Shown here one piece after another: positions 8,143 through 40,517 of a stretch of 58,270 nucleotides of DNA. Positions within the stretch are counted from its first letter, which is position 1; each line of letters opens with the position of its first letter. The notes beneath the pieces were generated by a model. The model made no database searches. It was not told the DNA's origin and saw only the letters and a list, made by a program, of their open reading frames with translations. A program made the position numbers and the translations under genes. Origin of the DNA: an uncultured Candidatus Saccharibacteria bacterium (GTDB lineage: Bacteria; Patescibacteriota; Minisyncoccia; UBA9983); contig CAYTKF010000003.1 of assembly GCA_964438405.1 (NCBI GenBank), positions 1 to 58,270 on the forward strand, written 5' to 3'.

Positions 8143-8196
8143 ACGGTCTTGTTTATAAAATAAGCTTTATTTATAATAGATACAGAAAACAAAGTG

Positions 8197-8234
8197 CCTG
8201 CCCGCAACGCTTGAGCGTAGCGATGGCGGGCGGG
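8197..8234 (+). repeat. REP-like GC-rich palindrome (CCTGCC family)
   Basis: CCTGCCCGC...GCGGGCGGG hairpin; near-identical inverted copy at 18233-18263. Confidence 0.8.
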
Positions 8235-8270
8235 GTCGATTTAAAAATTATTTCATTATTAAAATAAAAA

Positions 8271-8762
8271 ATGAATAAAAGAAACAAAGGTTTTACCTTA
8301 ATTGAACTTCTGGTAGTCATTGCCATTATCGGCTTATTGTCTTCTATTGTTTTGGCCTCGCTTAACAGCGCCAGAAAGAAAGCCAGAGACGCAAGAAGAG
8401 TGGCTGATTTAAAACAGCTTCAGATAGCATTAGAAATGTATTTTGACACTAATAAGCTTTATCCAACAGGCGCAAGCGCTACGGCCTTAGATCTGCTTAA
8501 AACCGGAGGATATATATCAGTAGTCCCTGTTGATCCTTTAGGCGGAACTTATGCATACGCAGGATTGGGTTCTGGCACTTCCTGCACTTCTTACCACCTC
8601 GGATCCAGTCTTGAAGACACTAACAGCCCGCTTCTTGGTAACGACGCTGATGCTGCATCTGGCACCGCCTGTACTGGCAGCACTGATTTTTCCGGCGTTG
8701 ATACAGCCAAATGCGCTGCCGCAGACTTGGGAGGCGCTGACTGCTATGACCTTAAGCCGTAA
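8271..8762 (+). CDS. Type IV major pilin 2 (paralog of pilin 1)
   Basis: RNKG|FTLIE signal; shares CxSYHLGxxLED and CYDxKP with pilin 1; 4 Cys. Confidence 0.92.
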
Positions 8763-8764
8763 TC

Positions 8765-8902
8765 GTGATTGATATTTTTGTTTTTATTTTCGGAACGATT
8801 ATAGGGAGCTTCCTCAATGTAATTATTTTACGCTTTAACACCGGCGAGTCGGCCCTAACGGGCGGCTCCCGGTGTTTTAGTTGTAGGCCAAACTATTATT
8901 AA
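8765..8902 (+). pseudogene. pilD: Truncated 5' fragment of a prepilin peptidase (pilD stub)
   Basis: Hand translation from GTG 8765: [45 protein letters not shown]. This aligns with the N-terminus of the intact PilD at 9667 ([26 protein letters not shown]...SKCFSCR). Not in the ORF track. Confidence 0.88.
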
Positions 8903-9597
8903 ATATCTACATCGAAGTCGGACTTCGACGCAAGTGGCCAATCACGAAGAAATTCTTCATATTCTTTTTTATTTTTAAATTGGTCAGTAATTATCTCTGA
9001 TCCGGATATTATCTGGTCTTTAAAGTTTTCTTCTAAAAACATCTTTAAACTTGACCAAGGATAGTTTAAAAGTTTATTTTTCGAAGAATTCCATTCTTTT
9101 AAGTTGTGCTGTCTCCAACCCTTACCGATTAAGAAATCCAAAGGATTAAGATGAATGTAAACAGAAAGATGAAGCAGATATTCATTTGAATTTACATGTT
9201 TAGATTTAAATTTGCTTTCAAAAAGGGGGCCGGTTCTGCCATTTTTTATATTTATGTATTTAGCAATTGATGTATTGCATTTACGTATAAATTCAGTAAT
9301 TCCTTTTTCTTTAACCTCTTTTAATAAAAGATGATAATGGTCTGGCATTATTGCATAACAGAGAACATCCACCAATTTTTCTCCTCGCCTTGCAATTTCT
9401 GTAGCTCTTTTAAATGTTGAATTTCTGTCGTTTCTTAAATAATCAAATGCTTGACCCGATTTTGTTGAATTGGCCAATAAAAATGTTTGGGCAAGTTTTG
9501 ATGCATTCTTGGTATCTTTAAACTCGGGAATATTAAAAATTGTTCTGCTGTATATATGATAGTATTCACCAGGAACAAATTTTTCTTTTCTCACCAT
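8899..9597 (-). mobile_element. REP-associated tyrosine transposase (RAYT, IS200/Y1 HUH superfamily)
   Basis: GEYYHIYSR, CYAIMPDHYHLLL (HUH), GPLFESKFKS, YIHLNP, YPWSS motifs. Confidence 0.9.
8908..8934. repeat. 27-bp hairpin direct repeat, copy 1 (overlaps the RAYT 3' end)
   Basis: TACATCGAAGTCGGACTTCGACGCAAG, containing the inverted repeat TCGAAGTC-G-GACTTCGA; identical to 9608-9634. Confidence 0.92.
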
Positions 9598-9607
9598 TAA
9601 TTTATTT

Positions 9608-9634
9608 TACATCGAAGTCGGACTTCGACGCAAG
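9608..9634. repeat. 27-bp hairpin direct repeat, copy 2 (RAYT promoter region)
   Basis: Identical to 8908-8934, 700 bp apart. On the minus strand it overlaps TTGCGT-18nt-TAAAAT, which ends 6 nt before the RAYT ATG. Confidence 0.92.
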
Positions 9635-9666
9635 ACAAATGGATATAATAATGTTAATATTAAAAT

Positions 9667-10404
9667 ATGGTAGTTAGTTTTTTTGTTTTTATTTTCGGAA
9701 CGATAGTTGGTAGTTTTTTGAATGTCGTTATTTTGCGTTACAATAGCGGTGAATCAATTATTAAAAATAGTTCTAAATGTTTTAGTTGTAGAGAAAGATT
9801 GAAATGGTATGAAATGATTCCGGTTTTAAGTTTTATATTCCAAAGGGGCAGATGCCGGCATTGCAAAAGTAAAATTTCATGGCAGTACCCGATTGTTGAA
9901 TTACTTACTGGTTTAGTTTTTTTATTAATATTTTTAAAATTCCAATTTACGCTCGTTACGAGTTACTACTTTGTAGTTTTCAGTATCTTAATAATTATTT
10001 CTGTTTATGATTTGCGCCACCAGATTATTCCCAATTTATTAGTTTATATTTTCGATATTTTGGCATTTTTAAATTTATTACTAATTACGAATTACGAATT
10101 ACGAATTACGAATTTTTTGGCTGGTTTATGTTTCTTCGCGTTTTTTGCTTTAATCTGGCTTTTGAGTAAGGGCAGGGCAATGGGCTTTGGTGATGCCAAA
10201 TTGGCATTGGGCATAGGCTGGTTTTTGGGTTTAAACAAGGGTATTTTTGCTCTCTTGTTGTCTTTTTGGCTTGGTGCCATTGTGGGTATTTTCCTTTTAA
10301 TTTTCTTTAATAAAAAGTATAATATAAAAAGTAGCATCCCCTTCGGTCCTTTTTTGGCCATGGGAGCTGCGGTTGCATTTTTATGGACAAAAAACTTTTT
10401 TTAA
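9667..10404 (+). CDS. pilD: Prepilin peptidase (A24) PilD
   Basis: GSFLNVVILR, CFSC/CRHC Zn sites, YDLRHQIIP and MGFGDAKL aspartyl motifs, IPFGPFLA. Confidence 0.95.
   Translation: MVVSFFVFIFGTIVGSFLNVVILRYNSGESIIKNSSKCFSCRERLKWYEMIPVLSFIFQRGRCRHCKSKISWQYPIVELLTGLVFLLIFLKFQFTLVTSYYFVVFSILIIISVYDLRHQIIPNLLVYIFDILAFLNLLLITNYELRITNFLAGLCFFAFFALIWLLSKGRAMGFGDAKLALGIGWFLGLNKGIFALLLSFWLGAIVGIFLLIFFNKKYNIKSSIPFGPFLAMGAAVAFLWTKNFF
10083..10114. repeat. Heptamer tandem repeat (AATTACG)x4.6 inside pilD
   Basis: AATTACG AATTACG AATTACG AATTACG AATT, encoding ITNYELRITN. Confidence 0.9.
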
Positions 10405-10760
10405 TATCAGTTATTATAGTTGCTGTTTTTACTGGTATTTATTATTCACCCCTTATAAAAAATAAACAAGGCGATAATACCATTGTTTTAATTTTGGATT
10501 ATGGCAATAATAAGAAACAATCTTTTAAACTATCCACAGAGGAACCATACCGAGTATGGAGTTTGCTTCAGCAGGTGGCAGCCGTCTCAAATACAATTTT
10601 GGTACCGGATAATAATTTTTATCCACAGAAAATAGATAGTCCTGACGGAGATATTGCAAACAAAAATTGGAATTTTTATGTTGATGGAATTAAACAAGAA
10701 AAATCACCGTTTGAAACGATGGTCAGTCCTCCGGCCGAAATTATATTTCGTCTGGAATAA
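10383..10760 (+). CDS. Membrane-anchored protein, DUF4430-like
   Basis: N-terminal TM helix; C-terminal WNFYVDG...SPFETMV resembles the W-x-F-x-VNG motif of DUF4430 (recognised from memory only). Confidence 0.5.
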   Translation: MDKKLFLISVIIVAVFTGIYYSPLIKNKQGDNTIVLILDYGNNKKQSFKLSTEEPYRVWSLLQQVAAVSNTILVPDNNFYPQKIDSPDGDIANKNWNFYVDGIKQEKSPFETMVSPPAEIIFRLE

Positions 10761-11322
10761 AAGGGATTCAAGAAATTCCGCCTTCACTGTTTTAGAACTT
10801 GTAGTCACAACTTCTATTTTAATTTTGATTATGGCTTTTCTCTTTAGTAATTACGCCAGTTTTAGGGAAAACTTATCTATCAAGAGAACCAGCCAGGAGA
10901 TTGCCTTGTCAATAAGACAGGCGCAGGTCTACAGTTTGAGCGTAAAGGAATCATCAGTTGGAAGCAATATTTTTCCCGGATATGGAATTCGTTTCGCGCT
11001 GTCTTCCCCGGATAGCTTTATTCTTTTTGCGGACAAAGCCAATTTAAATTATTATGATGTTGGAAACGGCTGCGGAAGCATGAATACAGAATGTGTTGAA
11101 AATAATAAAATAACAACAGGAGATAAAATTATTGCAATCTGCGGTGGCGCTGACTGCACACTTTCCAGTATGAACATTGTTTTTTTAAGGCCGATTCCAT
11201 TTGTAACTTTGATAACGGATGGAGGAACAATTTATTCTGATGTTTCCATAAGAGTCAGTTCTCCGGGCGGTAAAATAAAAACAATTAAGGTATTATCAAG
11301 CGGCCAAATATCAATAGAATGA
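10654..11322 (+). CDS. Minor pilin (FimT/PilE-like); start uncertain
   Basis: Class III-like signal RNSA|FTVLELVV with hydrophobic helix; all candidate starts overlap the upstream ORF. Confidence 0.75.
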   Translation: MQTKIGIFMLMELNKKNHRLKRWSVLRPKLYFVWNKRDSRNSAFTVLELVVTTSILILIMAFLFSNYASFRENLSIKRTSQEIALSIRQAQVYSLSVKESSVGSNIFPGYGIRFALSSPDSFILFADKANLNYYDVGNGCGSMNTECVENNKITTGDKIIAICGGADCTLSSMNIVFLRPIPFVTLITDGGTIYSDVSIRVSSPGGKIKTIKVLSSGQISIE

Positions 11323-11843
11323 AAAAGTTTTTTTCACAAAAAGGTTTTACTCTTCTTGAAACATTTGTGGCGGTGGCAATATTGGTCATGGTTGTTTCGG
11401 GTCCAGTTTCTTTGGCAATTACCAGTATGGGTCTTGCTTCTGTTTCTCAAAATCAGCTTGTTGCTTCATATTTGGGCCAGGAGGGAGTTGAGATTATAAG
11501 AAATATCCGCGATGGAAATTTTATTAATAATAGAAGCTGGCTTTCTGGATTAGGGCCGTGCTCTAATATTAATAACGGCTGTTATATAGATGTCAATTCT
11601 CTCAATTTCAATGCTATTTCTTGCGGTGTAAAGTGTCCTGTTTTAAAATATGATTCTAATCTAAATGTTCCTTATAACTATTCTTCAGGCCAAGACACGA
11701 TTTTTACAAGAATTATAACAGTAGACCCCGTGCCAGGTAAAACTGATGAGGCAGAGATTAAAGTTACTGTTTCCTGGTCGGAAAAATACCAGGATACTAA
11801 AAGTTTTGTTATTCAGGAAAATATTTTTGACTGGAAACCATGA
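11319..11843 (+). CDS. Minor pilin (PilV-like)
   Basis: QKG|FTLLE signal; ASYLGQEGVEIIRNIRD motif. Confidence 0.85.
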   Translation: MKKFFSQKGFTLLETFVAVAILVMVVSGPVSLAITSMGLASVSQNQLVASYLGQEGVEIIRNIRDGNFINNRSWLSGLGPCSNINNGCYIDVNSLNFNAISCGVKCPVLKYDSNLNVPYNYSSGQDTIFTRIITVDPVPGKTDEAEIKVTVSWSEKYQDTKSFVIQENIFDWKP

Positions 11844-12345
11844 TAAAAATTAAAAAATTAAGCAAGGGTTTTACATTACTGGAAATGATAGTGGCAGTAG
11901 GACTTTTTATTGTGGTGGCCATCATTTCTCTTGGTACTCTTTTGAACATAAGTGATGTTCAAAGAAAAACAGGAGCATTGAGGTCAATAAACGATAATAT
12001 AAATTTTTCTCTTGAGACCATGGTGCGGGAAATAAGATCCGGCAGTAATTACAGCAGTCCCAGCCAAAGCGTTTTCACTATGACCAATAATATAGGAGAA
12101 TCTGTGACATACCGGCTTAATAACAACAGAATAGAGAGGTCAGTCAGTGGCAATCCATATGTTGTCCTTACAGCCCAAGAAGTAACTATTAATAATTTAA
12201 AGTTTATAGTCAGTGGTCAATTGGCCGGAGATTCATTGCAGCCGTCGGTCACAATAAGCATCAATGGTATTGCCGGCTCTGAAAAGGAAAAAACAAAGGC
12301 GATTTTGAAATTACAAACCACTGTCACCCAAAGGAAATTAGATTC

Positions 12346-12349
<4 letters not shown>
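11840..12349 (+). CDS. Minor pilin (PilW/GspJ-like)
   Basis: SKG|FTLLE signal; MVREIRSG motif. Confidence 0.85.
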
Positions 12350-14780
<2,431 letters not shown>

Positions 14781-20747: not shown

Positions 20748-21668
20748 ATGGTTTGGATAAAAATAAAAAGAATTTTAAAATCAGGGTTCGTTAATTTTTG
20801 GAGAAACGGCTGGATTTCTCTGGCCACGATTTTGATAATGGTCATCACCCTTTTTACCATCGGTTCTCTCATCTTTTCCCGCGCCATTTTGGGCTCAATG
20901 ATTTCCCAGATACAGGACAAGGTTGATATCACTGTTTATTTTAAAACAAGCGCCCAGGAGCAGGATATTACAGCCTTTCAGAACCAGATTTCCAAACTGG
21001 GCGAGGTTAAAAGTGTAGAGTATATTTCTAGTGACCAGGCCCTGCAGGATTTTAAAGAACGGCACAAAGACAATGCCACAATAACCCAGTCGCTGGATGA
21101 GCTGGGAACTAATCCTCTTGGCGCCATGCTCAACATCAAAGCCAAAGAACCGTCTCAGTATGAGGCAGTGGCAAAATTTTTAGAGAATCAGACGAGTACT
21201 GGAAACGGTTCCATCATAGATAAAATAAATTATTTCCAGAACAAAATGGTCATTGACCGTTTAACAAAAATTTTGGACTCAGCCAAAAAGATGGGCGCTG
21301 TTTTGAGTATAGTTTTGATAATTATTTCTGTTCTCATCACATTCAACACTCTGCGTCTGGCGATTTATATTTCGCGCGAGGAAATAGGTGTGATGCGGCT
21401 GGTTGGCGCAAGTAGTAAATTTATCAGCGGGCCGTTTATGGTGGAGGGAATTATGTACGGAGTGATATCAGCCATCATTACTATGGTTTTGTTTTATCCC
21501 ATCTGCTACTGGCTTGGTTCAGTAACCGAGAGCTTTTTCTCCAGCGTTAATCTCTTTCATTATTACATTGCTAACTTTGGTCAGATATTTTTGGTTCTTC
21601 TTTTCACTGGTGTCGTCCTGGGCACTCTCTCAAGCTTCATAGCAATCAGAAGGTATTTGAAGATATAA
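20748..21668 (+). CDS. ftsX: Cell division permease FtsX
   Basis: NFWRNGW, four TM segments, NTLRLAIYISREEIGVMRLVGAS..FISGPF. Start MVWIK (20748) preferred over 20712. Confidence 0.92.
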   Translation: MVWIKIKRILKSGFVNFWRNGWISLATILIMVITLFTIGSLIFSRAILGSMISQIQDKVDITVYFKTSAQEQDITAFQNQISKLGEVKSVEYISSDQALQDFKERHKDNATITQSLDELGTNPLGAMLNIKAKEPSQYEAVAKFLENQTSTGNGSIIDKINYFQNKMVIDRLTKILDSAKKMGAVLSIVLIIISVLITFNTLRLAIYISREEIGVMRLVGASSKFISGPFMVEGIMYGVISAIITMVLFYPICYWLGSVTESFFSSVNLFHYYIANFGQIFLVLLFTGVVLGTLSSFIAIRRYLKI

Positions 21669-21670
21669 AA

Positions 21671-21828
21671 TTATAACCCTAGCAGTTTATAGGCAAGCAT
21701 TACTGGCCAGACAATGGTCTTGAGAATGCCCAATACACCGGCCCAAAAACCATCTGCCTACTGAATAAAATAAACCACCGCACCTATTAAACCTAAACTG
21801 TACACCGCACCGGAACCACACTTTTCAT
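21671..21828 (-). pseudogene. Decayed small two-TM membrane protein gene
   Basis: ATGAAAAG then TGT GGT...: a -1 frameshift in an A-run plus an in-frame TAG (21758-60). Reconstructed: M(K)KCGSGAVYSLGLIGAVVYFIQ*ADGFWAGVLGILKTIVWPVMLAYKLLGL*. Confidence 0.7.
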
Positions 21829-21861
21829 AAAAATTTTGTTAATTAATAATGTTTTAAAACA

Positions 21862-22470
21862 CTAAGAGATTTTTGTTTTTATATAATCTGTAATTTCTTG
21901 AATGGCTTGTTTTACATCTTTATTAAAAGCATCGTCATTATTTTCATCTCCATATCCTTTATCATAAATAATATCGTGAATTTCCATAATTTTTTTTGTT
22001 CTGAACTCTGGTGGTTGAAAATTTTGTTTTAAAGCTATATTAAGTTCAATAACTTTTTTATGTAATGGCTCTATTAAATTTGAAATATTTGGTCCCCAGA
22101 GTACTTCAGCTGCCAATAGATGTGATTCCATTTCAATATCAGCATCTCTAATTTCTTCCCATCTCATTTCGTATGTATATGCGTTTAAATCTTTTTTTAT
22201 TTCTTCTTCTGTTTTATCAGGATACTTGGTTTTGGAATATTGTGTTGCCTTATAAAATTCAGAAGGAAGAATAAAGGGGTCTCGAACATGTTTAATGGCA
22301 TTTCTGAGTTTAAGTATTGAATAATGAAGATTATAGGCAATATTAAATTCTTTTGTTCCCTTAATCTGTTTTTTCCATGTAGCAAGTCCCATGCCAGCAA
22401 TTATCAATCCGGCAGCCGCGAAGATAAACGTAAATATATCTTTAATAATAAGGTATGTAGGATTTTCCAT
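21862..22470 (-). CDS. Hypothetical protein with one N-terminal TM helix (tRNA-adjacent islet)
   Basis: 202-aa ORF, very AT-rich, TM then GLATWKKQ; directly downstream of tRNA-Gln. Confidence 0.75.
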   Translation of the reverse strand: MENPTYLIIKDIFTFIFAAAGLIIAGMGLATWKKQIKGTKEFNIAYNLHYSILKLRNAIKHVRDPFILPSEFYKATQYSKTKYPDKTEEEIKKDLNAYTYEMRWEEIRDADIEMESHLLAAEVLWGPNISNLIEPLHKKVIELNIALKQNFQPPEFRTKKIMEIHDIIYDKGYGDENNDDAFNKDVKQAIQEITDYIKTKIS

Positions 22471-22517
22471 AAATATTACTTAATGATAAATTTGATTTCA
22501 AAAATCGTATTCCTTTT

Positions 22518-22588
22518 CTGCGGGATAGGGATTCGGACCCCAATTTTTTGGTTCAGAGCCAAACGTCCTACCATTAGACGATCCCGCA
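22518..22588 (-). tRNA. tRNA-Gln(CTG)
   Basis: U1-A72 acceptor TGCGGGA/TCCCGCA, TTTGG-CTCTGAA-CCAAA; T-loop TCCGAAT. Confidence 0.93.
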
Positions 22589-22644
22589 ATAGTTTATTTC
22601 TATCACAAAAATTTTTATTTTTCAAACCCTCTTTTGGCTAAAAA

Positions 22645-22673
22645 TTGTCAATGCCAGATAATTTTGGTATAAT
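22645..22673 (+). promoter_or_regulatory. Sigma70 promoter for the methyltransferase-kinase operon
   Basis: TTGTCA-17nt-TATAAT, 7 nt before ATG 22681. Confidence 0.72.
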
Positions 22674-22680
22674 AAATCCA

Positions 22681-23574
22681 ATGACCATTGATTCTAATCC
22701 AGCATTAAAATACGAATATCAAGGAAAATGGAAATTTTTTTTGATGCCGGTTTTGGAGTATCCAATTACTTTTTGGGTGGCATTTAAAAAATTGTTTAAC
22801 GGCGGAAAATTAAAAACAAATTGTTTTTGGATTGACGGAATAAGTCCGATTTGTAGAAACATAAAAGAAAATGCCACTAATTGGCGTGCACTGGACACAA
22901 TTTACAATTATGAGCCCAAAAACGGAAATTTTGTTGATTCCATAACAAGATTTTGGATGGAAAATGTAGTAAACGTAAAAGCCGTTCGCAATCGCTTAAA
23001 ACTGATAAAAGAAAAATTACATCAAGCGATTGAGGAAATTTTATCAAAAAATAAAGAGGTTAAAATACTTTCAATAGCTAGCGGTTCAGCACAGGGTTTA
23101 ATAGAAATTATATCGGAATTTAAACAAAAAAATATTTTTATTAAAGCTCTTCTTATTGATTTAGATCCAACGGCAATAGAAAATAGTAGAAAGTTGGCGC
23201 AGGAAAATGGAGTTTTGGGACAAATAAGTTTTGCGAACAAAAACGCACATAATCTTGAAGAGGCGGTTGGAAATTTTAAACCAAATATAATTGAAATGGT
23301 TGGTTTTTTAGAATACAGGTCAAAAGAAAAAGCGATAAAATTAATTCAAAGAATTCATAATATCCTTGAAACAGATGGGATTTTTCTAACCAGTAATTTG
23401 AAAAACAATCTTGAGCGATCATTTCTAAATTTTGTTATTGATTGGCCGATGGTTTACCGTTCGCCAGAGGAATTTGCTAAGGTTTTAGAAAATGGGGATT
23501 TTTCTCCAGAAAATTTTGAAATTATTTACGAGCCATTAAAAATTCACGGCGTAGCAATTTGTAAAAAGTTATAA
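22681..23574 (+). CDS. Class I SAM-dependent methyltransferase (PhcB-like)
   Basis: ILSIASGSA motif I, LLIDLD motif II, VGFLEY, LTSN, IDWPMVYRS. Start set by the promoter. Confidence 0.75.
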   Translation: MTIDSNPALKYEYQGKWKFFLMPVLEYPITFWVAFKKLFNGGKLKTNCFWIDGISPICRNIKENATNWRALDTIYNYEPKNGNFVDSITRFWMENVVNVKAVRNRLKLIKEKLHQAIEEILSKNKEVKILSIASGSAQGLIEIISEFKQKNIFIKALLIDLDPTAIENSRKLAQENGVLGQISFANKNAHNLEEAVGNFKPNIIEMVGFLEYRSKEKAIKLIQRIHNILETDGIFLTSNLKNNLERSFLNFVIDWPMVYRSPEEFAKVLENGDFSPENFEIIYEPLKIHGVAICKKL

Positions 23575-23585
23575 AATAAATAATT

Positions 23586-25214
23586 ATGTTATCTTATGCG
23601 TTTTCGGGATTAATTAATGGAATAGTAAGCCTTCTTTTTGGTATTCTTGTTTACTTCGGGAATAAAAAGGCAGAATTAAATAAAAAGTTTGTTATTTTGT
23701 GCTCCGTGGTTTTTGTGTGGAGTTTTGGTTATTTTTTCTGGCAGATTTCGGATAATACGGGATCGGCGCTATTTTGGTCAAGGGTTTTAATGATAGGAGC
23801 GATTTTTATACCGGTTACATATTTTCATTTTGTCTTGGTTTTTCTGAATAAACTGAAAGAAAATAGAAAACTTTTAACTTTTATATATATTCTTTCTTTT
23901 GTTTTTTTAATTCTAAATTTTACTCCGTTGTTTGTTAAAAATGTAGAACCAATTTTATCGTTTCCTTATTGGCCCAAAGCAGGGCTTGCCTACGGCCCAT
24001 TTGTTTTTATGTTTGTCGCTCTTGGAATTTACTGTTGGTATTTAATGCTTCGGGCGCTTAAGAAATCAACGGGCGTAGAAAAATTACAGATAAAATATGT
24101 TTTTTGGGGAACATTAATAGGTTACAGCGCCGGAATTACAAATTATTTTTTGTGGTACAATATTCCGATTCCGCCGCTTGGCAATTGGATTTGTTCAATT
24201 TACATAATATCAATGGCTTATGCTGTTTTGAAACATCACCTAATGAATATTAAAGTTATTGCTACTGAACTATTTGGCGGAGCGCTGATTCTTGTTTTCT
24301 TGTTTAATCTTTTTCTTTCCCAAAACAGTAGTGATTTTTGGGTAAAACTTATATTGCTTATTTTTGTTTCTGTTTCTGGCATTCTTTTTATCCGTTCCGT
24401 TTGGCAGGAAGTGCGAACGCGCGAGGAGAAAGAAAAGCTGGCAGAGGATTTGGCTGTTGCCAATACAGAGTTGGCCAAGGCCAATGAGCGGTTGAAGGAA
24501 CTGGATAAGGCCAAGTCGGAATTTGTGACCATTGCCTCGCACCAGTTGCGCACGCCCATTACTGCCATTAAAGGTTATTCCTCTATGCTTCTTGAGGAAA
24601 CATACGGAAAATTTTCAGAACAGATGAAAAAACCGCTGGAAAATATTTTTGAATCAGCCAACCGCATGGTCCATATGATTGGCAATTATCTCACCTTGAG
24701 CAGGATAGAAAGGGGTAAAATAGAATATATGTTTCAGAAAGCCGACCTCAAAGAAATAGTAGATTCAGTTTTTGATGAATTTAAAGTTGTGAACGAAAAA
24801 CAGAAAAACGGCAAGAATCTTGATTTGAGTTTGGACATTGCTGAAGGCGAAGATTTTAATTTGAACATTGACGCGGAAAAAATAAGAGAGGTTGTTTACA
24901 ATATCATGGATAACGCCATGAAGTACACTCATCAGGGCTTTATCAAGATTTTTCTTTCCAAAAGCGCTGACAAGAGTAAGACTGTTTTGAAAATTCAGGA
25001 TTCTGGTATTGGCATGAACAAAGAGGCAATGGCCAAGCTTTTCCAGAAATTCAGCCAGGCCGGGCAGGGCAACGGCAACGGCGGTGCCGCGCCTGGCATG
25101 GGACTGGGGCTTTACGTGGCGCAGGAAATAATAAAGGCGCACAACGGCAGAATCTGGGCAGAGTCCGAAGGCGATGGCAAGGGAAGCACGTTTTTAATAG
25201 AACTGCCGGTATGA
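23586..25214 (+). CDS. Sensor histidine kinase with an N-terminal multi-pass (about 7 TM) domain
   Basis: H-box ASHQLRTP, N-box NIMDNAMKYT, G1 DSGIG, G2 GMGLGL; hydrophobic N-terminal half. Confidence 0.94.
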   Translation: MLSYAFSGLINGIVSLLFGILVYFGNKKAELNKKFVILCSVVFVWSFGYFFWQISDNTGSALFWSRVLMIGAIFIPVTYFHFVLVFLNKLKENRKLLTFIYILSFVFLILNFTPLFVKNVEPILSFPYWPKAGLAYGPFVFMFVALGIYCWYLMLRALKKSTGVEKLQIKYVFWGTLIGYSAGITNYFLWYNIPIPPLGNWICSIYIISMAYAVLKHHLMNIKVIATELFGGALILVFLFNLFLSQNSSDFWVKLILLIFVSVSGILFIRSVWQEVRTREEKEKLAEDLAVANTELAKANERLKELDKAKSEFVTIASHQLRTPITAIKGYSSMLLEETYGKFSEQMKKPLENIFESANRMVHMIGNYLTLSRIERGKIEYMFQKADLKEIVDSVFDEFKVVNEKQKNGKNLDLSLDIAEGEDFNLNIDAEKIREVVYNIMDNAMKYTHQGFIKIFLSKSADKSKTVLKIQDSGIGMNKEAMAKLFQKFSQAGQGNGNGGAAPGMGLGLYVAQEIIKAHNGRIWAESEGDGKGSTFLIELPV

Positions 25215-25843
25215 ACAAACAGGATTATTTTGTCGGGCTTAGCGAGCGCGAGTTGAAAATTTTTAAAAAACTTTCCACCCCGGGAAAAATACAGGATTTT
25301 CTGGAAAAAATTCCCATTAATTTTGATTACGAAAAAGACACTCTTATTTCGCCCCTAATGATTCTTCGCAAAAACAAGGCCTATTGCATAGGAGGCGCGA
25401 TTTTTGCCGCAGCCGTTCTTTTTTTCCACGGTCACAAGCCTTTGCTTCTTGATTTAAAATCAACGAGCAATGATTCCGACCACGTTTTGGCTCTTTTCAA
25501 AAAAAACAAAAAATGGGGCGCCATAAGCAAGACCAATCATGCTGTTCTCCGCTATCGCGAGCCGATTTACAAAAGTGTCCGCGAACTGGCCATGTCATTC
25601 TTTCACGAATATTTTGATGATAAAGGAAAGAAAAATCTAAGAAGCTTTTCCAAACCTCTCAATATTTTAAGTTTAAAAAGAAAAGATTGGATTACATCTG
25701 GAAAAGATATTTGGGAAATTGCCGAGGCTCTTGATAAACAGCCCCACTGCAATATTCTTACAAAAGAAGAAATTGCCCTCTTACGGAGGGCCGACCCGAT
25801 TGAGATTGAGGCAGGGAAGATAACGCGCTGGAAGAAAATTTAA
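25211..25843 (+). CDS. Conserved hypothetical protein, transglutaminase/papain-like fold
   Basis: TPGKIQDFL, AYCIGGA (Cys), DHVLALF (His), WGAISKTNH; ATGA overlap with the kinase. Confidence 0.6.
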   Translation: MNKQDYFVGLSERELKIFKKLSTPGKIQDFLEKIPINFDYEKDTLISPLMILRKNKAYCIGGAIFAAAVLFFHGHKPLLLDLKSTSNDSDHVLALFKKNKKWGAISKTNHAVLRYREPIYKSVRELAMSFFHEYFDDKGKKNLRSFSKPLNILSLKRKDWITSGKDIWEIAEALDKQPHCNILTKEEIALLRRADPIEIEAGKITRWKKI

Positions 25844-27681
25844 AATAATTTTTTTGCCTCGTTCCAATAGGTCGGGTCATTATTTTTTTCTTTCATCCAA
25901 TACCACCATTCAGCGCCCCAGAGATAAAATTCGTTTAACCCAGTTTTTTTTGCAAACTCAATATTTTCTTTAAAAATTTCCAAAGACATTGTTTTTTTCT
26001 CCTCTTCCAACGGCAAATCGTATAACAGCACCCGGCCCCATGGCTCAGCCTGCAATTCTATGCAGATAACATTTTTATGGAAAAATTTTTCTATAATCCA
26101 GGTTTTAAATCTGTAAAAAAATGGGGGAAAGGGATATCTTATATAGATTTTAAGCGGTTTGAACCATGTTCTTGTATACATTGTTATGCCCACAATATCA
26201 GCGATTTTTGCAGTTTTAAACCAGCTTGACCACTCACCTGAGTCGGAAATAATCACCGGCCGTTTATACGGGTCAAGTTGACGTACAAGATTCGCCTCTT
26301 TTTTTAAAAAATTTTCATCATACCACGGGCATTCGCCGAATTGGAAAAGTGGTTCGTTTTCAACCTGCCATGCCAATATTGTATTTTTGTAATTTTCTCC
26401 GGAGTATCTATTTATAATTTTTGCCAGCTCCGCCAAAATTTCTTTTTGCTGTTCTTCTTTGGATAAATTTTTTGCCCAGTCCGGTATGTGACATTCTGGC
26501 CAACGGCTTGTCTTCATGCCTATAACTGGTATGATTTCTGCTCCGCGCTTTTGCGCTTCGTTGAGCTGCCAGTCGGTGTCGTCAAAAACAAATTTATCTT
26601 TTTCCGGCTCTGTCATATCCCAGTCAACAGCTGTTTTTATTTTTTTAACATTCATATCGTCAAGAAGGCTAAGATAGTTTGCCCTCCAGTCAAGGCCGAA
26701 GTTTTGAGAATGTTTCTGGGAAAAATTGACTCCCCATGAAATTTTTTGCGAATTATTTGTATTTGGCATAAACAAAAAAATAAGGCCGATAATTATTAAT
26801 ATTATGGAAATTATTTTTTGTATTATTATTTTACCAGAAATCTTTTCTTTCAGCCCATGCTCTTTTGACCAGAGCGGGAATATTAGAGATATTAAACCGG
26901 TAATGATTAAAAGAAAGACATATTGCGTTCCCTGCAGGGCGTTAATTATCGCAACAAAAGAGAGCGGAGCTATGGCTACAGCCCAGTTCTGCAAAAGATT
27001 AGCTCCAGCCCCGCCAGCCTGATTGATAAAAAATATTACAACATTTCCCTTTTTAGCCCGAAAAGAATCCCTAAGCACCGAATTTCTTATTTTCCCGGAG
27101 AGGACAAACAAAAACAGCGCTGTCAGCCCGCTGCCTATTTTAATCCAAAAAAGTGCATTCCAAAGGCCCTGGCCTAAAAATGCGTATTTGCTAAAAACAA
27201 AAGAAAGCGCAAAGAAAAATGCCGCAACACCAGCCAGCCAAAAACTTTTTAAACTAATTTTTTTCTCTAAAGTTATTAATATACTGCCGATGACAAGAAG
27301 TATAAATGCCAATCCCGCGGAAAAAGATAAAGTCTCTTTTCCTCTGGAAAATATAAAAACAAAAAGAAAAGTAAAAATCGGCACGAGCCCGCCAATGGCC
27401 GGAATGATACGCGACGCTTCAAATTTCTTCAGCCCCGTGAACAGCCACAAAGTTCCCAAAACAAAACTTGCCCCAGAGGCAAAACTAAAAAATATCTGCT
27501 GGTTGCTTGGCAGATAAATGCCGAAAACAGGTATGAGTAAAAGTATAAGCAAACTCAAAATGCTGATATAAAAAGCATAAGCTCCCGGCTCAGGCACAGC
27601 CTTGGCAAGCAAATATTTGTCTATCAAAAAGACGACTGCAAGAATAAAATATGAAGATATGGCGATAATCAACCAGAGCAT
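25840..27681 (-). CDS. Fusion of an EamA/DMT transporter domain and a clan GH-A glycoside hydrolase-like domain
   Basis: About 10 TM helices in the N-terminal 300 aa; then WGVNFS, WQVENEP (acid/base), IELQAEPW (nucleophile), YLWGAEWW. Confidence 0.75.
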   Translation of the reverse strand: MLWLIIAISSYFILAVVFLIDKYLLAKAVPEPGAYAFYISILSLLILLLIPVFGIYLPSNQQIFFSFASGASFVLGTLWLFTGLKKFEASRIIPAIGGLVPIFTFLFVFIFSRGKETLSFSAGLAFILLVIGSILITLEKKISLKSFWLAGVAAFFFALSFVFSKYAFLGQGLWNALFWIKIGSGLTALFLFVLSGKIRNSVLRDSFRAKKGNVVIFFINQAGGAGANLLQNWAVAIAPLSFVAIINALQGTQYVFLLIITGLISLIFPLWSKEHGLKEKISGKIIIQKIISIILIIIGLIFLFMPNTNNSQKISWGVNFSQKHSQNFGLDWRANYLSLLDDMNVKKIKTAVDWDMTEPEKDKFVFDDTDWQLNEAQKRGAEIIPVIGMKTSRWPECHIPDWAKNLSKEEQQKEILAELAKIINRYSGENYKNTILAWQVENEPLFQFGECPWYDENFLKKEANLVRQLDPYKRPVIISDSGEWSSWFKTAKIADIVGITMYTRTWFKPLKIYIRYPFPPFFYRFKTWIIEKFFHKNVICIELQAEPWGRVLLYDLPLEEEKKTMSLEIFKENIEFAKKTGLNEFYLWGAEWWYWMKEKNNDPTYWNEAKKLF

Positions 27682-28904
27682 TGCGATATTATTTTTTCAA
27701 TATTATATACGCCCATTTTTTCCGCCTCAATAAAACCCTGCATGGCTGCCTCGCTGAACCAGCCGGAATTAATCCCGTCAAAAAGCCATTCAGACGTATA
27801 ATCGGGATTTTCCTGGTCTCTGCCGGAACCCAAATTAAGCAGCCATTTTCTGTTAAAATCTTCTTGCGAGCCTATTGTTGGGGCAATTATAATGGGCAGG
27901 CCAATTGCCGTATAAAAAGACAATTCGCTTGGCTTAGTCCATAGAATATCGGTTTTTCTCAGGGCAGAGTTAAAGTTTTTAAAATAGTCATTAATATTAT
28001 CTCCGGAAATTATTTCTACATCACCATCAAAATATTTTTTTAGGCCAGTTTTTACACCGATAGAAATAATTATTTTTATTTCGTTGTTTTTAATTTTCTT
28101 TCTTAAGTTTTTAATTATTTTTAATGCAATATCTTTTTGGGCGCCGGCTCCGCCGATGGCAAACATCAGGGTCAGGGGATGGTCGGATTTTTCCGGCAGA
28201 TCGCCCAGGTAATTTTTTACCAAATCGTTGTATTTGCTTAGATATTTTTTCTGAGGGTCGAGATTTAAAATGCGATTCTTGAGATCATCTTTGTTTATAT
28301 TTTCTTTGGGCAAGGGATAGCCAGTGAGAAAAATATTTTCAGACCTGACGCCATATAGTTCTAATCTTTCCACTACTCTTTGGTTTGGTGCAAAATATTT
28401 TATTCTGCTTTTTTGCGGTTCCAGCGGAGCCCAGGTGCGGGAGACATCAGCGTCGCAGACAATGCAGAAAATTTCTCCGGGATAATTAAAAAATTCCGCC
28501 ATAAAGGCCGGAGTAAAAAAAGTACTGATAATGGGCAGGGGATTATTTTTTAATTTTTCTATTAAATCTTTGCCCCAGCCCTTTTTAATAAGAGCAAAAT
28601 TGTTTTTGAGAATAAAATTGGGTTCAGATAAGTCTCTTCTTGGATAAAAATTTAAAATTTTCTGGAAATAATCAAAGGCAAAAAAAACAGTGTTTCCAAT
28701 AATAGGCATCCTCTTGAACCTTGAAATAAATTCGTAAAATTTTTGATTGGACTGCCAGATTTTTTTATCTTTTAAGGGAATGCTTTCATAATCGTTGGCA
28801 TTGATAACTTTTTCATCCGGCGCCAAATACCGCAGGGGATAGGCAGTACGCTGGTGGCCATAGCCCATATTCACATCTATTATCCACGCTCTTGTTTTAT
28901 CCAT
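27669..28904 (-). CDS. GT-B glycosyltransferase-like protein (MGDG synthase-like)
   Basis: MGYGHQRTA, IGGAGAQ, TKPSELSF, PTIGSQEDFN motifs. Confidence 0.65.
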   Translation of the reverse strand: MDKTRAWIIDVNMGYGHQRTAYPLRYLAPDEKVINANDYESIPLKDKKIWQSNQKFYEFISRFKRMPIIGNTVFFAFDYFQKILNFYPRRDLSEPNFILKNNFALIKKGWGKDLIEKLKNNPLPIISTFFTPAFMAEFFNYPGEIFCIVCDADVSRTWAPLEPQKSRIKYFAPNQRVVERLELYGVRSENIFLTGYPLPKENINKDDLKNRILNLDPQKKYLSKYNDLVKNYLGDLPEKSDHPLTLMFAIGGAGAQKDIALKIIKNLRKKIKNNEIKIIISIGVKTGLKKYFDGDVEIISGDNINDYFKNFNSALRKTDILWTKPSELSFYTAIGLPIIIAPTIGSQEDFNRKWLLNLGSGRDQENPDYTSEWLFDGINSGWFSEAAMQGFIEAEKMGVYNIEKIISQCSG

Positions 28905-38936: not shown

Positions 38937-39869
38937 ATGCCTAGAAATTTTAACCCAGAAAATCTACCATCTCCCGAACTTACTCATGAAGGAATTATGC
39001 TCACCAGCGGCCGTGTCCGCCGAGCTAAAGAGGGCAGAGAACATCGTTGCGAAGACGATATATTAGCTTTTGATTCTGGTGACGTAGTCCAAGCAGTTTA
39101 CGGTGTGTTTGATGGCGTGGGGGGCCACTTTTATGGACAGGAGGCTGCTGAAACCGCAAAAAAGATTTTAAAGTTATATCTTGAACAACATCATCGCGGG
39201 ACTACTAAAAATATCTCCCAAAGGGACCCTAAGAAAATCGGGGCTGATCTTAGAGACTGTTTACTTGAAGCAAATGATAGACTTTTTAGATGGGGCGAAA
39301 AACTCCAAATAGAAAAAGCCGGGCCTAGCACCACTGCTACTGTTTTGATGTTTACCCAAAGTAAGGAAAAGGGATTAGTTGCTGTGATCGCCCATGTTGG
39401 GGATAGCCGGGTTTACCTTTTTCGCGGAGGCAAACTGGAATGTTTAACTCTCGATGATAACCCGCTCATCAAACAAAGTGCTAACCCCAAAGAAACACAG
39501 ATCCAATTAAGCAATACCCACGATCACGCTCTACTATACAGACGAAATGAATTAAGTAAGGCACTTGGATTTGGAAAATATCTTGAACCCCAGATTCTTG
39601 AAACCCTGGCGCAAAAAGGCGATTTATTTCTGATTACTACCGATGGAATTACTGATAATCTAACGGACGAAGAAATCGAGAGGACATTAGAAGAGGCTTT
39701 TGGAACCATGGCCGCCCCCCAAGAAAAAGATTTAGATTTCAAAGACCTTATTAGTAGTAGTGCTAAATTGTTGTATGAGAAGGCTTTGGAAATCAGCCGC
39801 AAAAATCGAGAGGAAGAGGCCCGCGTTCACCCAGACGATATGACTGCGATTATCGTAAAAGTAGAATAA
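38937..39869 (+). CDS. PP2C/PPM-family Ser/Thr phosphatase
   Basis: CEDD, VFDGVGGH, STTAT, HVGDSRVY, TTDGITD, DDMTAI. Confidence 0.9.
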   Translation: MPRNFNPENLPSPELTHEGIMLTSGRVRRAKEGREHRCEDDILAFDSGDVVQAVYGVFDGVGGHFYGQEAAETAKKILKLYLEQHHRGTTKNISQRDPKKIGADLRDCLLEANDRLFRWGEKLQIEKAGPSTTATVLMFTQSKEKGLVAVIAHVGDSRVYLFRGGKLECLTLDDNPLIKQSANPKETQIQLSNTHDHALLYRRNELSKALGFGKYLEPQILETLAQKGDLFLITTDGITDNLTDEEIERTLEEAFGTMAAPQEKDLDFKDLISSSAKLLYEKALEISRKNREEEARVHPDDMTAIIVKVE

Positions 39870-39902: not shown

Positions 39903-40517
39903 ATGACTGCTTTACAAAAAATTAAAAAACTGGAAAAAGAGATTAAAAAACTGCGCGAGCTGGCATATAAAGACGAGCTGACCAAGCTTTACAATAGGCA
40001 TGGCTTTAAAGAAGAGTCAGAAAAGATTATTTCTCAGGTGTCGGCCTTTTTAAAACACGGCGATAAAAGAAAATCTTTGATAATAAAAGATTTTAGTTTG
40101 ATAATTTTTGACATAGACAATTTTAAAAAACTTAACGATACTTACGGCCATCAGGCGGGCGACGAGGCCTTAAAATTTTTTAGCGGATTAATATTGGACC
40201 GTGTAAGAGGCATTGATGCTGTGGCCCGTTGGGGCGGGGAAGAAATTGTAGTGGGTCTGGCCGGAGCCAACGAAGATGACGCATATAAAATCGCCGATGA
40301 TATCCGCGGAAAGCTGGAAAGAAACAGTTTTGTTTATAAAAATAAAAAAATAAATTTTACAGTTAGCGGTGGCGTGACAAGTTTAAATAAGACAAAAGAT
40401 TTTGAGAATATGTTTCGTTGCGCTGACAAAGCCTTGTATAAAGCCAAAAAAACAGGTAAAAATAAGATAGTAAAAGGAAGCGTCGCATTGCGCCTCAACG
40501 GCGCACTTGTGCGGTAA
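39903..40517 (+). CDS. GGDEF diguanylate cyclase
   Basis: DELTKLYNR, FDIDNFKKLNDTYGH, RxxD I-site, RWGGEE, ADKALYKAK. Confidence 0.92.
   Translation: MTALQKIKKLEKEIKKLRELAYKDELTKLYNRHGFKEESEKIISQVSAFLKHGDKRKSLIIKDFSLIIFDIDNFKKLNDTYGHQAGDEALKFFSGLILDRVRGIDAVARWGGEEIVVGLAGANEDDAYKIADDIRGKLERNSFVYKNKKINFTVSGGVTSLNKTKDFENMFRCADKALYKAKKTGKNKIVKGSVALRLNGALVR

Follow-up and report, generated by a model that had tools for sequence, protein, structure and literature searches.

In Ralstonia, the phcBSRQ operon carries a methyltransferase gene, phcB, immediately upstream of the gene for a membrane-embedded kinase, PhcS. PhcB (RSc2735) makes a fatty-acid methyl ester that is sensed by PhcS, while the receivers encoded downstream have no DNA-binding domains; phcB itself is chromosomal in both Ralstonia and Cupriavidus. 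In the CqsA–CqsS pair of Vibrio and the LqsA–LqsS pair of Legionella, the gene for the signal enzyme likewise lies beside that for a multi-pass kinase without a periplasmic domain, and CqsS and LqsS sense a hydrophobic, fatty-acid-derived signal in the membrane. CqsA and LqsA are PLP-dependent acyl-CoA transferases, not methyltransferases, and their kinases have about six transmembrane (TM) helices and are not members of the HisKA_7TM family.

CPR bacteria account for a large fraction of bacterial diversity; they live attached to host cells and are expected to lack fatty-acid synthesis. To our knowledge, hardly anything has been learned about their sensing of hosts or of each other. Here we analyse a methyltransferase–kinase locus in 58,270 nt of DNA from a CPR bacterium (the whole stretch is referred to below as the window), for which an initial annotation had proposed a signal synthase and receptor of the PhcB/PhcS kind. 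We explain the locus best as a signalling cassette of two genes that is conserved in CPR/Patescibacteria, accompanied by one unrelated passenger gene, and the results suggest that the cassette encodes a hitherto undescribed pair, an enzyme making a membrane signal and a kinase sensing it.

Results

Layout of the locus

The features of the locus are collected in Table 1. The layout given in the initial annotation stands: a promoter-like site precedes the methyltransferase gene, the kinase gene begins after a gap of 11 bp, and a third gene, of Cys–His hydrolase type, is translationally overlapped with the kinase through a shared ATGA at 25211–25214 that contains the kinase stop. It was also correct that no response regulator adjoins the kinase, the sole receiver of the window being flanked by T2SSE ATPases (PilB/PilT).

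Table 1. Positions of the features discussed in the text, numbered from the first letter of the window.
Feature	Position	Strand	Basis or remark
Sigma-70-like promoter (TTGTCA, 17 nt, TG-TATAAT)	22645–22673	+	Consensus match only
Methyltransferase gene	22681–23574	+	PF12147 match; start codon inferred from homologue N-termini
Methyltransferase–kinase spacer, 11 bp (methyltransferase stop to kinase ATG)	23575–23585	+	
Sensor histidine kinase gene, 542 aa	23586–25214	+	Pfam, hydropathy, catalytic boxes
CPR-C4 family cysteine protease gene (transglutaminase-like, vasohibin-like)	25211–25843	+	AlphaFold and Foldseek
CheY-like stand-alone receiver gene, flanked by PilB and PilT	4900–5280	+	Pfam Response_reg, E 4.9e-18
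tRNA-Gln(CTG), upstream boundary of the operon	22517–22589	-	ARAGORN

The best sigma-70-like site between 21600 and 26200 (TTGTCA at 22645, TATAAT at 22668–22673) matches the consensus at 11 of 12 positions, and a TG upstream of its -10 box makes it an extended -10 site. It is important to note that the scan of this interval gave 20 such sites against 14.8 expected from shuffled sequences, and that the promoter call is a consensus match, not proof. The site falls inside the longest methyltransferase open reading frame, which opens with TTG at 22645 and encodes 309 residues. Given that homologues begin about 12 residues into this frame (alignment A1), the start is probably the ATG at 22681, yielding a protein of 297 residues (P0002). 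The -10 box ends 7 nt before this ATG, which suggests that the transcript of the methyltransferase–kinase operon is nearly leaderless.

The methyltransferase

By Pfam and profile comparison, the methyltransferase is a divergent member of PF12147 (Methyltransf_20), the family of E. coli YnbC. It is a class I enzyme that matches PF12147 at 44.4 bits (cut-off 21) over profile positions 77–241 of 309, and it also matches generic class I methyltransferase models. A homologue search gave 277 relatives, and nearly all of those listed were already annotated as PF12147; alignment with E. coli YnbC by hhalign gave a probability of 96.5% (E 9e-10) over 215 columns, with motifs in common. The Rossmann core carries SIASGSAQG, D172, EMVGFLEYR and DWPMVYR; the family alignments show no variation at G147 and little or none at D172. 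GFLEY (220–224) and DWPMVYR (266–272), two of the motifs that had originally been cited for their resemblance to PhcB-type enzymes, are both present and occupy the best-conserved alignment columns of the family. They are motifs of the YnbC family, the counterpart of DWPMVYR in E. coli YnbC being PWVMRVR. We know of no characterised reaction for YnbC itself, and our literature search found nothing on PF12147 or Methyltransf_20.

The protein differs from YnbC in its architecture. The fused N-terminal alpha/beta-hydrolase domain of YnbC is absent from our methyltransferase, a stand-alone protein of about 300 residues with an N-terminal helix; a Moraxella PF12147 protein likewise lacks this domain, which is YnbC's own and not a feature of PF12147 as a whole. 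The hydrophobic helix (residues 28–51 of the long open reading frame) has a mean hydropathy of 1.11 and is thus only moderately hydrophobic. A TM-grade hydrophobic segment lies ahead of the catalytic core in 51 of 79 family members, and the N-terminal helix probably tethers most of the family to the membrane. Pfam detected no CheR-like domain in the methyltransferase.

The AlphaFold model of the methyltransferase (pLDDT 94.6) has alternating strands and helices, and the predicted structure is the class I Rossmann SAM-binding fold that characterises PF12147. A Foldseek search with this model returned 918 PDB matches at E <= 0.001; of the 50 listed, every one is a class I methyltransferase except for the uncharacterised top match, 3ocj. 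Small-molecule O- and C-methyltransferases come closest to the predicted fold: its nearest neighbours of known structure are family-2 O-methyltransferases, SibL, MppJ, SgvM, a PKS C-methyltransferase domain and ChlM, and the 50 listed matches include no methyltransferase acting on RNA or protein. Sequence searches of the PDB with the methyltransferase and with its profile gave only weak, generic class I matches.

The sensor kinase

The kinase combines a HisKA_7TM domain (PF16927; residues 11–222, 23616–24251; 62.4 bits against a threshold of 28.6), two further TM helices reaching to approximately 24392, a HisKA domain (PF00512; 24510–24716; 65.7 bits) in which H319 is the H-box histidine, and a HATPase_c domain (PF02518; 24870–25208; 86 bits). 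The N, G1 and G2 boxes are all found. The initial annotation had described about seven TM helices and no large extracellular domain. The second part of this description holds, as no loop long enough for an extracytoplasmic domain was seen in the hydropathy scan, while the first is roughly right: about seven segments exceed the threshold before residue 270, and two weaker segments (at about 170–215), read by eye, bring the total to about nine.

In alignment A5, the 7TM domain has a mean column identity of 46% and contains the conserved motifs WS.GYFFWQ, F/YWP..G and GGSTNYxLWY.IPIPP.GN. This well-conserved multi-pass membrane domain is the sole sensory part of the kinase; we found no published ligand for the HisKA_7TM sensor domain.

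Conservation of the methyltransferase–kinase pair

The methyltransferase and kinase genes form a conserved cassette, with an adjacency far beyond chance. We sampled 72 species-level genome loci found via the methyltransferase, 69 of them with downstream sequence, and a HisKA_7TM kinase is the next same-strand gene in 54 of the 69. Methyltransferase identity in these loci ranges from about 25% to 80%, with adjacency persisting even at about 25%, and the gap between the two genes has a median of 25 bp, with overlap in 13 of 51 pairs. For the reverse comparison we used 73 metagenome loci, chosen only via the 7TM domain of the kinase and having at least 300 bp upstream. A PF12147-type methyltransferase lies upstream of the kinase in 61 of these (59 directly, one overlapping and one a gene away), and after collapsing at 90% identity some methyltransferase is found there in 59 of 63 informative clusters. 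The open reading frames of the related loci come from a simple script, and taxon labels of metagenome-assembled genomes (MAGs) are unreliable. The neighbourhood that the initial annotation had singled out for scoring is thus strongly conserved both ways; neither of the outcomes named there as refuting the proposal, RNA or protein methyltransferases as the closest structural homologues or an unconserved adjacency, was observed. Such adjacency demonstrates that the two genes are functionally linked, without telling in which direction. We found no published description of the association.

Outside the cassette, the kinase is missing next to PF12147-type homologues from MAGs that carry the labels Smithella, other Deltaproteobacteria, Rhodocyclales, Nitrosomonadales and Salinibacter, from which we conclude that the enzyme can work without it. 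No clear common partner of the non-CPR homologues emerged in the contexts examined. Homologues labelled Smithella lie with CrtC-lipocalin and acetyl-CoA hydrolase genes; betaproteobacterial ones lie with a small protein and what appears, from its sequence, to be an XRE-type regulator. On the kinase side, four records of distant HisKA_7TM kinases (Manganitrophus, Burkholderia, Paraburkholderia and Leptospira) list no methyltransferase directly upstream. Searching plasmids with the 7TM domain (tblastn) gave weak matches in Burkholderia and Paraburkholderia, which we inspected as candidate PhcS homologues and which are paired with a thioesterase and have no adjacent methyltransferase, and matches in Manganitrophus that are paired with sigma-54 regulators.

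Replacement of the methyltransferase

In seven further kinase loci (L109, L113, L122, L145, L149, L150 and L152), an unrelated class I methyltransferase lies upstream of the kinase, whose orthologues there share 45–53% identity in the 7TM domain. The replacement is non-orthologous and occupies the same position upstream of orthologous kinases. In the six complete loci, the replacing methyltransferase forms one protein with a LuxD-like acyl thioesterase (PF02273), the thioesterase part matching PDB 1tht at E 4e-24, and a START lipid-binding domain is present in three and a PilZ domain in four of these six fusions; the L122 gene ends at a contig edge, leaving the methyltransferase part alone visible. 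Such an architecture suggests an order of events in which a fatty acid is released and then methylated.

Receivers and the third gene

Of 38 related loci, 12 have a stand-alone receiver directly 3' of the kinase, and none of the loci examined showed a DNA-binding regulator next to the cassette. In the 58 kb of incomplete genome available to us, our guess is that the receiver between PilB and PilT is a candidate phosphorylation partner of the kinase.

The third gene is an already described CPR-C4 cysteine protease. Its AlphaFold model (pLDDT 91.3) matches 7ob6, 7ob7 and 7pjo by Foldseek at TM scores of 0.90–0.92 and 47–49% identity, and the gene has more than 7340 homologues. Alignment A6 shows no variation at residues C59, H91 or L113, which probably correspond to C61, H93 and L115, the Cys–His–Leu triad of the published CPR-C4 protease, which was reported to have no informative gene neighbourhood (PMC9108980). 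The initial annotation had listed this gene in the same operon. It does overlap the kinase stop here, yet a CPR-C4 gene follows the kinase in none of the 38 related loci, and we have rejected it as part of the cassette.

Discussion

Proposed mechanism

We favour, with a probability of roughly 45%, a reading in which the methyltransferase makes a methylated lipid-like cue, the 7TM kinase senses this cue, and output passes via stand-alone receivers. We infer the substrate of the enzyme, its product as the ligand of the kinase, which receiver takes part and what the output is as follows. From a lipid precursor, the methyltransferase would make a methylated product that partitions into the membrane; since a CPR cell without fatty-acid synthesis would need to scavenge any lipid precursor, the precursor would probably be host-derived. 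The 7TM domain would bind the methylated product inside the bilayer and switch autophosphorylation at H319, and the phosphoryl group would then move to a stand-alone receiver protein, so that the output would be post-translational (control of type IV pili, for example) rather than transcriptional. The logic would be that of signal synthase and sensor pairs of the PhcB/PhcS type. Quorum sensing and a host-derived lipid, both of which were raised in the initial annotation, would likewise be conjectural readings of the cassette.

Lipid signal or lipid remodelling

Judging from the gene context of its family, the most likely substrate of the methyltransferase is a fatty-acyl or glycerolipid-type molecule. 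The ynbABCD genes of E. coli, ynbC among them, also encode a CDP-alcohol phosphatidyltransferase, a paralogue of CdsA and a phosphatase of the PAP2 type. In Moraxella, the PF12147 gene overlaps one for a patatin phospholipase, with CdsA and PAP2 genes nearby. The acyltransferase PlsC is fused to the methyltransferase in L039, P0211 and P0416, its gene is the next one upstream in 6 of 46 loci, and it turns up somewhere in the flanking sequence retrieved (8 kb at most) in 16 of 72; PlsC–methyltransferase fusions came to light when a homologue from a Rhodocyclales-labelled MAG was used as query. Among more distant relatives, FeeM/LuxI-like N-acyl synthases flank L071, PlsC adjoins L059, and L057 is fused to an MMPL transporter. 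This context, together with the LuxD-type thioesterase–methyltransferase fusions upstream of kinase orthologues, supports the lipid or fatty-acyl substrate suggested at the outset. The frequent association with PlsC fits bulk lipid remodelling and signal synthesis equally well.

A less likely alternative to the signalling reading is that the cassette serves membrane-lipid homeostasis or remodelling. The methyltransferase would then modify bulk lipids (the head group or acyl chain of a scavenged host lipid, for instance), no diffusible or autoinducer-like signal would be made, and the 7TM kinase would monitor the state of the bilayer or form a complex with the methyltransferase as co-sensor. 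The PlsC genes, fused, adjoining or nearby, and the phospholipid-biosynthetic contexts of YnbC and the Moraxella gene all agree with this explanation, as do the membrane anchor on the methyltransferase and the tight or overlapping spacing of the two genes, which suggests stoichiometric co-production. However, the thioesterase–START–methyltransferase fusions upstream of orthologous kinases look like makers of free fatty-acid derivatives and not like enzymes of bulk lipids. Furthermore, a kinase with stand-alone receivers only, and with no adjoining DNA-binding regulator in the loci surveyed, cannot easily control the transcription of lipid genes.

Other explanations

A narrower form of the signalling explanation, which we think improbable, is that the two proteins are true orthologues of PhcB and PhcS, the methyltransferase making a 3-hydroxy fatty-acid methyl ester and the kinase being a PhcS homologue. 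The operon order is the same, a methyltransferase followed by a multi-pass kinase, and the downstream receivers are without DNA-binding domains, as in phcBSRQ. We are sceptical, however, given that no protein named PhcB is found among the 120 best matches listed in each of two methyltransferase homologue searches, and that the Burkholderia and Paraburkholderia kinases with weak 7TM matches are paired with a thioesterase, not a methyltransferase. In RefSeq, members of PF12147 bear the name 'class I SAM-dependent methyltransferase family protein', and a published table gives PhcB without 'family protein', a difference that weakly hints that PhcB belongs to another methyltransferase family, outside PF12147.

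Alternatively, the methyltransferase might act in the manner of CheR, methylating the kinase or its receiver to tune signalling. The two genes are tightly coupled and inherited together, which speaks for such a pair, but we rejected this role as very unlikely on grounds of fold and context: the fold is nearest to small-molecule methyltransferases, the context of the family is lipid metabolism, no CheR-like domain is present, and the replacing enzymes bear an acyl thioesterase and often a lipid-binding domain. Finally, while co-transcription does not in general equal a shared pathway, functionless adjacency (a chance operon or hitch-hiking genes) is effectively refuted, as the pairing is conserved both ways (54/69 forward, 59/63 non-redundant clusters in reverse), holds over the whole range of methyltransferase identities and survives the swap to an unrelated methyltransferase.

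Significance

The cassette occurs in dozens of species-level CPR lineages and makes CPR sensing experimentally testable. It also puts forward a ligand class for the HisKA_7TM domain and offers a clue to what the uncharacterised YnbC/PF12147 methyltransferases do. In other bacteria, the thioesterase–methyltransferase fusions upstream of orthologous kinases mirror the cassette. We tentatively raise the broader idea, which we would not yet back, that CPR/Patescibacteria and some other bacteria, those with the non-orthologous fusions, have one widespread and hitherto undescribed chemical signalling system: a dedicated methyltransferase would make a methylated membrane-active signal from a fatty-acyl or lipid precursor (taken from the host in CPR cells), HisKA_7TM would be its receptor, and stand-alone receivers would control surface machinery such as type IV pili. 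In that case HisKA_7TM would gain a ligand class, and CPR episymbionts a first candidate circuit for sensing kin or host.

Comparison with known systems

For the third gene, we see no difference of substance from the described CPR-C4 proteases (7ob6, 7ob7 and 7pjo); in this window the gene happens to overlap a kinase stop. With the Phc system, the likeness is one of gene order, in that a methyltransferase gene lies directly upstream of a multi-pass kinase gene. A stand-alone receiver is found downstream in about a third of related loci, and the context of the methyltransferase is lipid-linked. In contrast to phcBSRQ, the kinase gene in the window is followed by CPR-C4 instead of the receivers PhcR and PhcQ, the methyltransferase is of PF12147/YnbC type, and neither a PhcR-like kinase–receiver hybrid nor a PhcA-like LysR regulator was seen for the cassette. 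With respect to YnbC, the CPR methyltransferase stands beside a kinase and has no alpha/beta-hydrolase domain, whereas YnbC stands beside phospholipid-synthesis genes and has no kinase neighbour; what the two enzymes have in common is their membership of PF12147 and a context of lipid metabolism.

Conserved pairing of the methyltransferase and the kinase

Scanning with the methyltransferase alignment, one genome per GTDB species, returned 72 related loci, whose called ORFs were compared with the window's proteins by phmmer. Sequence downstream of the methyltransferase was present in 69, and in 54 of these, as classified by single-sequence phmmer thresholds on ORFs from a simple longest-ORF script, the next same-strand gene encodes a HisKA_7TM kinase. 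The 54 comprise 51 automatic assignments and three loci (L063, L065 and L067) in which a spurious short ORF intervenes. The kinase lies ∼1.6 kb and ∼2.8 kb further downstream in L013 and L023. Most of the 13 exceptions come from higher-GC contigs whose labels, unreliable for MAGs, read Smithella, Deltaproteobacteria, Rhodocyclales, Nitrosomonadales or Salinibacter; the remaining exceptions, L058 and L071, are divergent low-GC cases. The gap between the two genes has a median of 25 bp; among 51 pairs, 13 show overlapping genes. Loci obtained by pattern scan are biased towards sequences bearing the conserved peptides.

The reverse search, a metagenome scan using the 7TM-domain alignment alone, yielded 80 loci. 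Of these, 73 have 300 bp or more of sequence before the kinase; 59 of the 73 carry a PF12147-type methyltransferase directly upstream, and a profile HMM adds L106, where the methyltransferase overlaps the kinase, and L089, where one gene lies between. Collapsed at 90% identity, the kinases form 53 clusters with this methyltransferase, six with another, four with none and six with no room for one. The adjacency on which the initial annotation staked its signal synthase and receptor proposal is thus clearly conserved in both directions.

Replacement of the methyltransferase

In seven loci (L109, L113, L122, L145, L149, L150 and L152) the kinase has 45-53% identity to the window's 7TM domain, yet the PF12147 enzyme is absent and a different gene occupies its position. 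In the six complete cases this gene encodes a fusion of 670-860 aa, which always combines a LuxD-type acyl transferase/thioesterase (PF02273) with a Methyltransf_11/31-type class I methyltransferase; a PilZ domain is present in 4/6 and a START/Bet v 1 lipid-binding domain (Polyketide_cyc) in 3/6. In L122 the contig ends within the gene, of which only the methyltransferase part is visible. The L150 fusion matches 1tht, the structure of the Vibrio harveyi myristoyl-ACP thioesterase, at E 4e-24. Our profile of the methyltransferase family did not detect the fusion methyltransferase domains, which are therefore not simply divergent copies of the PF12147-type enzyme. That the latter has been replaced, ahead of an orthologous sensor, by an unrelated methyltransferase fused to a fatty-acid-releasing enzyme strongly suggests that a methylated fatty-acyl product is what matters to the kinase. 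The fusions look like c-di-GMP-regulated fatty-acid methyl-ester synthases, and such combinations of a LuxD-like thioesterase and a methyltransferase appear to be undescribed. In L148, FabA-like and FabD-like genes lie upstream of the kinase.

Burkholderia gladioli and Paraburkholderia replicons (L155 and L156) encode a kinase whose N-terminus is weakly HisKA_7TM-like, and a small convergent gene is its partner. In B. gladioli the annotation of this gene is thioesterase; the Paraburkholderia gene in the corresponding position is labelled hypothetical. This is another pairing of a 7TM kinase with an acyl enzyme.

Family, fold and lipid context of the methyltransferase

The methyltransferase, the kinase and the third protein belong to PF12147 (Methyltransf_20), PF16927 and CPR-C4, respectively. 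The methyltransferase scores 44.4 bits against a Pfam cut-off of 21 and also matches generic class I models more weakly; its NCBIfam hits all fall far below threshold. Within 5.8 billion proteins 277 relatives are detectable; nearly all among the matches listed are annotated PF12147, and the few bearing names are CPR/Parcubacteria. Against 1.84 billion cluster representatives the profile found 456, 2152 and 4637 clusters at E ≤ 1e-30, 1e-10 and 1e-3. In the AlphaFold model, which is confident (pLDDT 94.6), residues 28-51 form a long N-terminal helix, and a helical cap and Rossmann core are also seen; Y87, N88, R117, R225, W267 and R272 are among the conserved residues. The model's first Foldseek match in the PDB is an uncharacterised Bordetella protein (3ocj, TM ∼0.6), and the rest of the 50 listed are only small-molecule methyltransferases, including family-2 O-methyltransferases, SibL, MppJ, SgvM, the citrinin PKS C-methyltransferase domain and ChlM.

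Using hhalign, the CPR family aligned with E. coli YnbC over 215 columns (probability 96.5%, E 9e-10). The DWPMVYR motif, previously read as resembling PhcB-type enzymes, is real, and it aligns with PWVMRVR of YnbC. A Moraxella plasmid protein is a bona fide PF12147 member (E 3e-92), and tblastn with it identifies the family core as the C-terminal domain of YnbC, annotated 'bifunctional alpha/beta hydrolase/class I SAM-dependent methyltransferase', whose ynbABCD neighbours are a CDP-alcohol phosphatidyltransferase, a CdsA paralogue and a PAP2 phosphatase. In Moraxella, the PF12147 gene and one for a patatin-like phospholipase overlap, with CdsA and PAP2 genes nearby. In CPR loci the commonest extra neighbour is a PlsC-type acyltransferase. 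Its gene adjoins the methyltransferase on the upstream side in 6 of 46 loci, and 16 of 72 loci have it on the same strand somewhere in the flanking sequence retrieved (up to 8 kb); in L039 and in the homologous proteins P0211 and P0416 the acyltransferase and the methyltransferase are fused. A TM-grade hydrophobic segment precedes the catalytic core in 51 of 79 family members. The YnbC and Moraxella contexts, the PlsC links, the neighbours of distant relatives (see table) and these segments point the same way, and the inference they best support is that the substrate is a lipid or fatty-acyl molecule; we found no biochemically characterised member of the family.

The kinase, the third protein and the operon

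Pfam assigns the kinase HisKA_7TM (residues 11-222), HisKA and HATPase_c domains. A hydropathy scan gives ∼7 segments above threshold ahead of residue 270, to which two weaker ones read by eye may be added (∼9 in total), and no extracytoplasmic domain. H319 is intact, as are the N, G1 and G2 boxes, and the most conserved 7TM-domain motifs are WS.GYFFWQ, F/YWP..G and GGSTNYxLWY.IPIPP.GN. Longer variants carry a GAF domain between the 7TM and HisKA domains, and some loci have, just before the pair, a gene for a stand-alone 7TM protein that lacks a kinase domain.

Pfam gives nothing above threshold for the third protein, which has more than 7340 homologues at ∼60% identity, those named being from CPR bacteria and DPANN archaea (Pacearchaeota, Nanoarchaeota). 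Its model (pLDDT 91.3) superposes on CPR-C4 (7ob6, 7ob7 and 7pjo; TM 0.90-0.92, 47-49% identity), and C59, H91 and L113 are invariant; we take these to be the counterparts of C61, H93 and L115 in the published triad (PMC9108980). Given the superposition, the identity and the Cys-His-Leu residues, the protein is a member of this known protease family, and the initial description of a Cys-His hydrolase-like gene was correct. CPR-C4 is a very large family, and that it should be so well conserved in ultra-small symbionts of both domains is striking.

The arrangement first described, a promoter-like site followed by the methyltransferase, the kinase and a coupled third gene, is borne out by the ORFs, which are co-directional, and the promoter scan. 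The kinase ATG lies 11 bp past the methyltransferase stop, and the kinase stop overlaps the third start as ATGA. The sigma-70-like site is the strongest within 21600-26200 and falls inside the longest methyltransferase ORF. As homologues begin ∼12 residues after the start of that ORF, the true start is probably ATG 22681, 7 nt past the -10 box; with no Shine-Dalgarno visible before it (22645-22684), this points to an mRNA that is leaderless or nearly so. A divergent 202-aa ORF also lies upstream. The two genes converging on the operon encode a 613-aa protein in which an EamA-like membrane domain is fused to a glycoside-hydrolase-like domain, and a 411-aa DUF6938 protein with weak MGDG/diglucosyl-DAG-synthase-like matches that is possibly glycolipid-related.

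Coordinates of features in the window and, where named, in related loci of other genomes or metagenomes
Feature	Position	Strand	Remarks
ORF 1, methyltransferase (longest form)	22645-23574	+	ORF listing
ORF 2, kinase	23586-25214	+	ORF listing
ORF 3	25211-25843	+	ORF listing
Sigma-70-like site	22645-22673		TTGTCA-17-TATAAT, TG extension; 11/12 positions
tRNA-Gln gene	22517-22589	minus	upstream of operon
Convergent gene	25840-27681		downstream of operon
Two convergent genes	25840-28904	minus	
Type IV pilus cluster	799-12780		PilM, PilB, receiver, PilT, PilC, prepilin peptidase by Pfam
Receiver	4900-5280		stop overlaps pilT start
PP2C phosphatase	38937-39869		
GGDEF diguanylate cyclase	39903-40517		stand-alone
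TraG/VirD4-like coupling-protein homologue	41834-44242		802 aa
Stand-alone HisKA_7TM genes	L043 1222-2592; L060 6761-7525; L064 679-1422		loci labelled Kerfeldbacteria, Peregrinibacteria
Distant PF12147-like methyltransferase	L071 6567-8944		flanked by two FeeM/LuxI-like N-acyl amino-acid synthases
Distant PF12147-like methyltransferase	L059 6263-8789		adjoins PlsC acyltransferase
Distant PF12147-like methyltransferase	L057 5316-8813		fused to MMPL transporter, beside hybrid kinase
Weakly HisKA_7TM-like kinase and small gene	L155 4962-6917; L156 4956-6907		

Candidate output

In 12 of 38 loci the gene next after the kinase encodes a stand-alone receiver; elsewhere the genes that follow are unrelated housekeeping genes, and CPR-C4 occurs after the kinase in none of the 38. 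The only receiver in the window, which covers only 58 kb of an incomplete genome, sits between PilB and PilT, in a cluster where several ORFs have pilin-like N-termini. Lying between the extension and retraction ATPases, it is a candidate output of the orphan kinase; because of this position, pilus control through a CheY-like protein is a plausible inferred output. The window also encodes a PP2C phosphatase, a diguanylate cyclase and a TraG/VirD4-like homologue.

Interpretation and known systems

Our preferred reading, to which we assign a probability of roughly 0.45, is that the methyltransferase would make a methylated, membrane-partitioning molecule derived from lipid, that the 7TM domain of the kinase would sense it, and that the signal would be passed on through single-domain receivers. 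Counting against it, PF12147-type homologues occur without a kinase in MAGs with non-CPR labels (L028, Rhodocyclales; L030, Deltaproteobacteria; L034, Nitrosomonadales), and distant HisKA_7TM kinases have no methyltransferase listed directly upstream in the records examined. In L030 and L034 a divergent upstream gene is XRE-type-regulator-like by sequence, and a ∼160-aa protein is encoded downstream in L028 and L030, without a Pfam match where checked (L028).

The main alternative is that the cassette is a module for lipid remodelling or homeostasis, with the kinase monitoring the bilayer or complexing with the enzyme. The PlsC linkage suits bulk-lipid chemistry and signal synthesis equally, and so also counts against the sensed-product reading; we consider the module somewhat less likely than that reading. 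True PhcBS orthology, a subset of the sensed-product reading, is improbable: in RefSeq, PF12147 proteins go by the name 'class I SAM-dependent methyltransferase family protein', and since a published table names PhcB 'Class I SAM-dependent methyltransferase', the difference hints weakly at separate families. CheR-like protein methylation is very improbable, no RNA or protein methyltransferase being among the 50 PDB matches listed, and chance adjacency is scarcely credible.

We found no publication on the association of this methyltransferase with HisKA_7TM, which published work treats only as an entry in catalogues of sensor domains. We rate the general type, a signal synthase paired with a sensor kinase, as already known. 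CqsA-CqsS and LqsA-LqsS work in like manner, and it is by its proposed logic, a methyltransferase that makes and a 7TM kinase that senses, that we liken the cassette to PhcB-PhcS.
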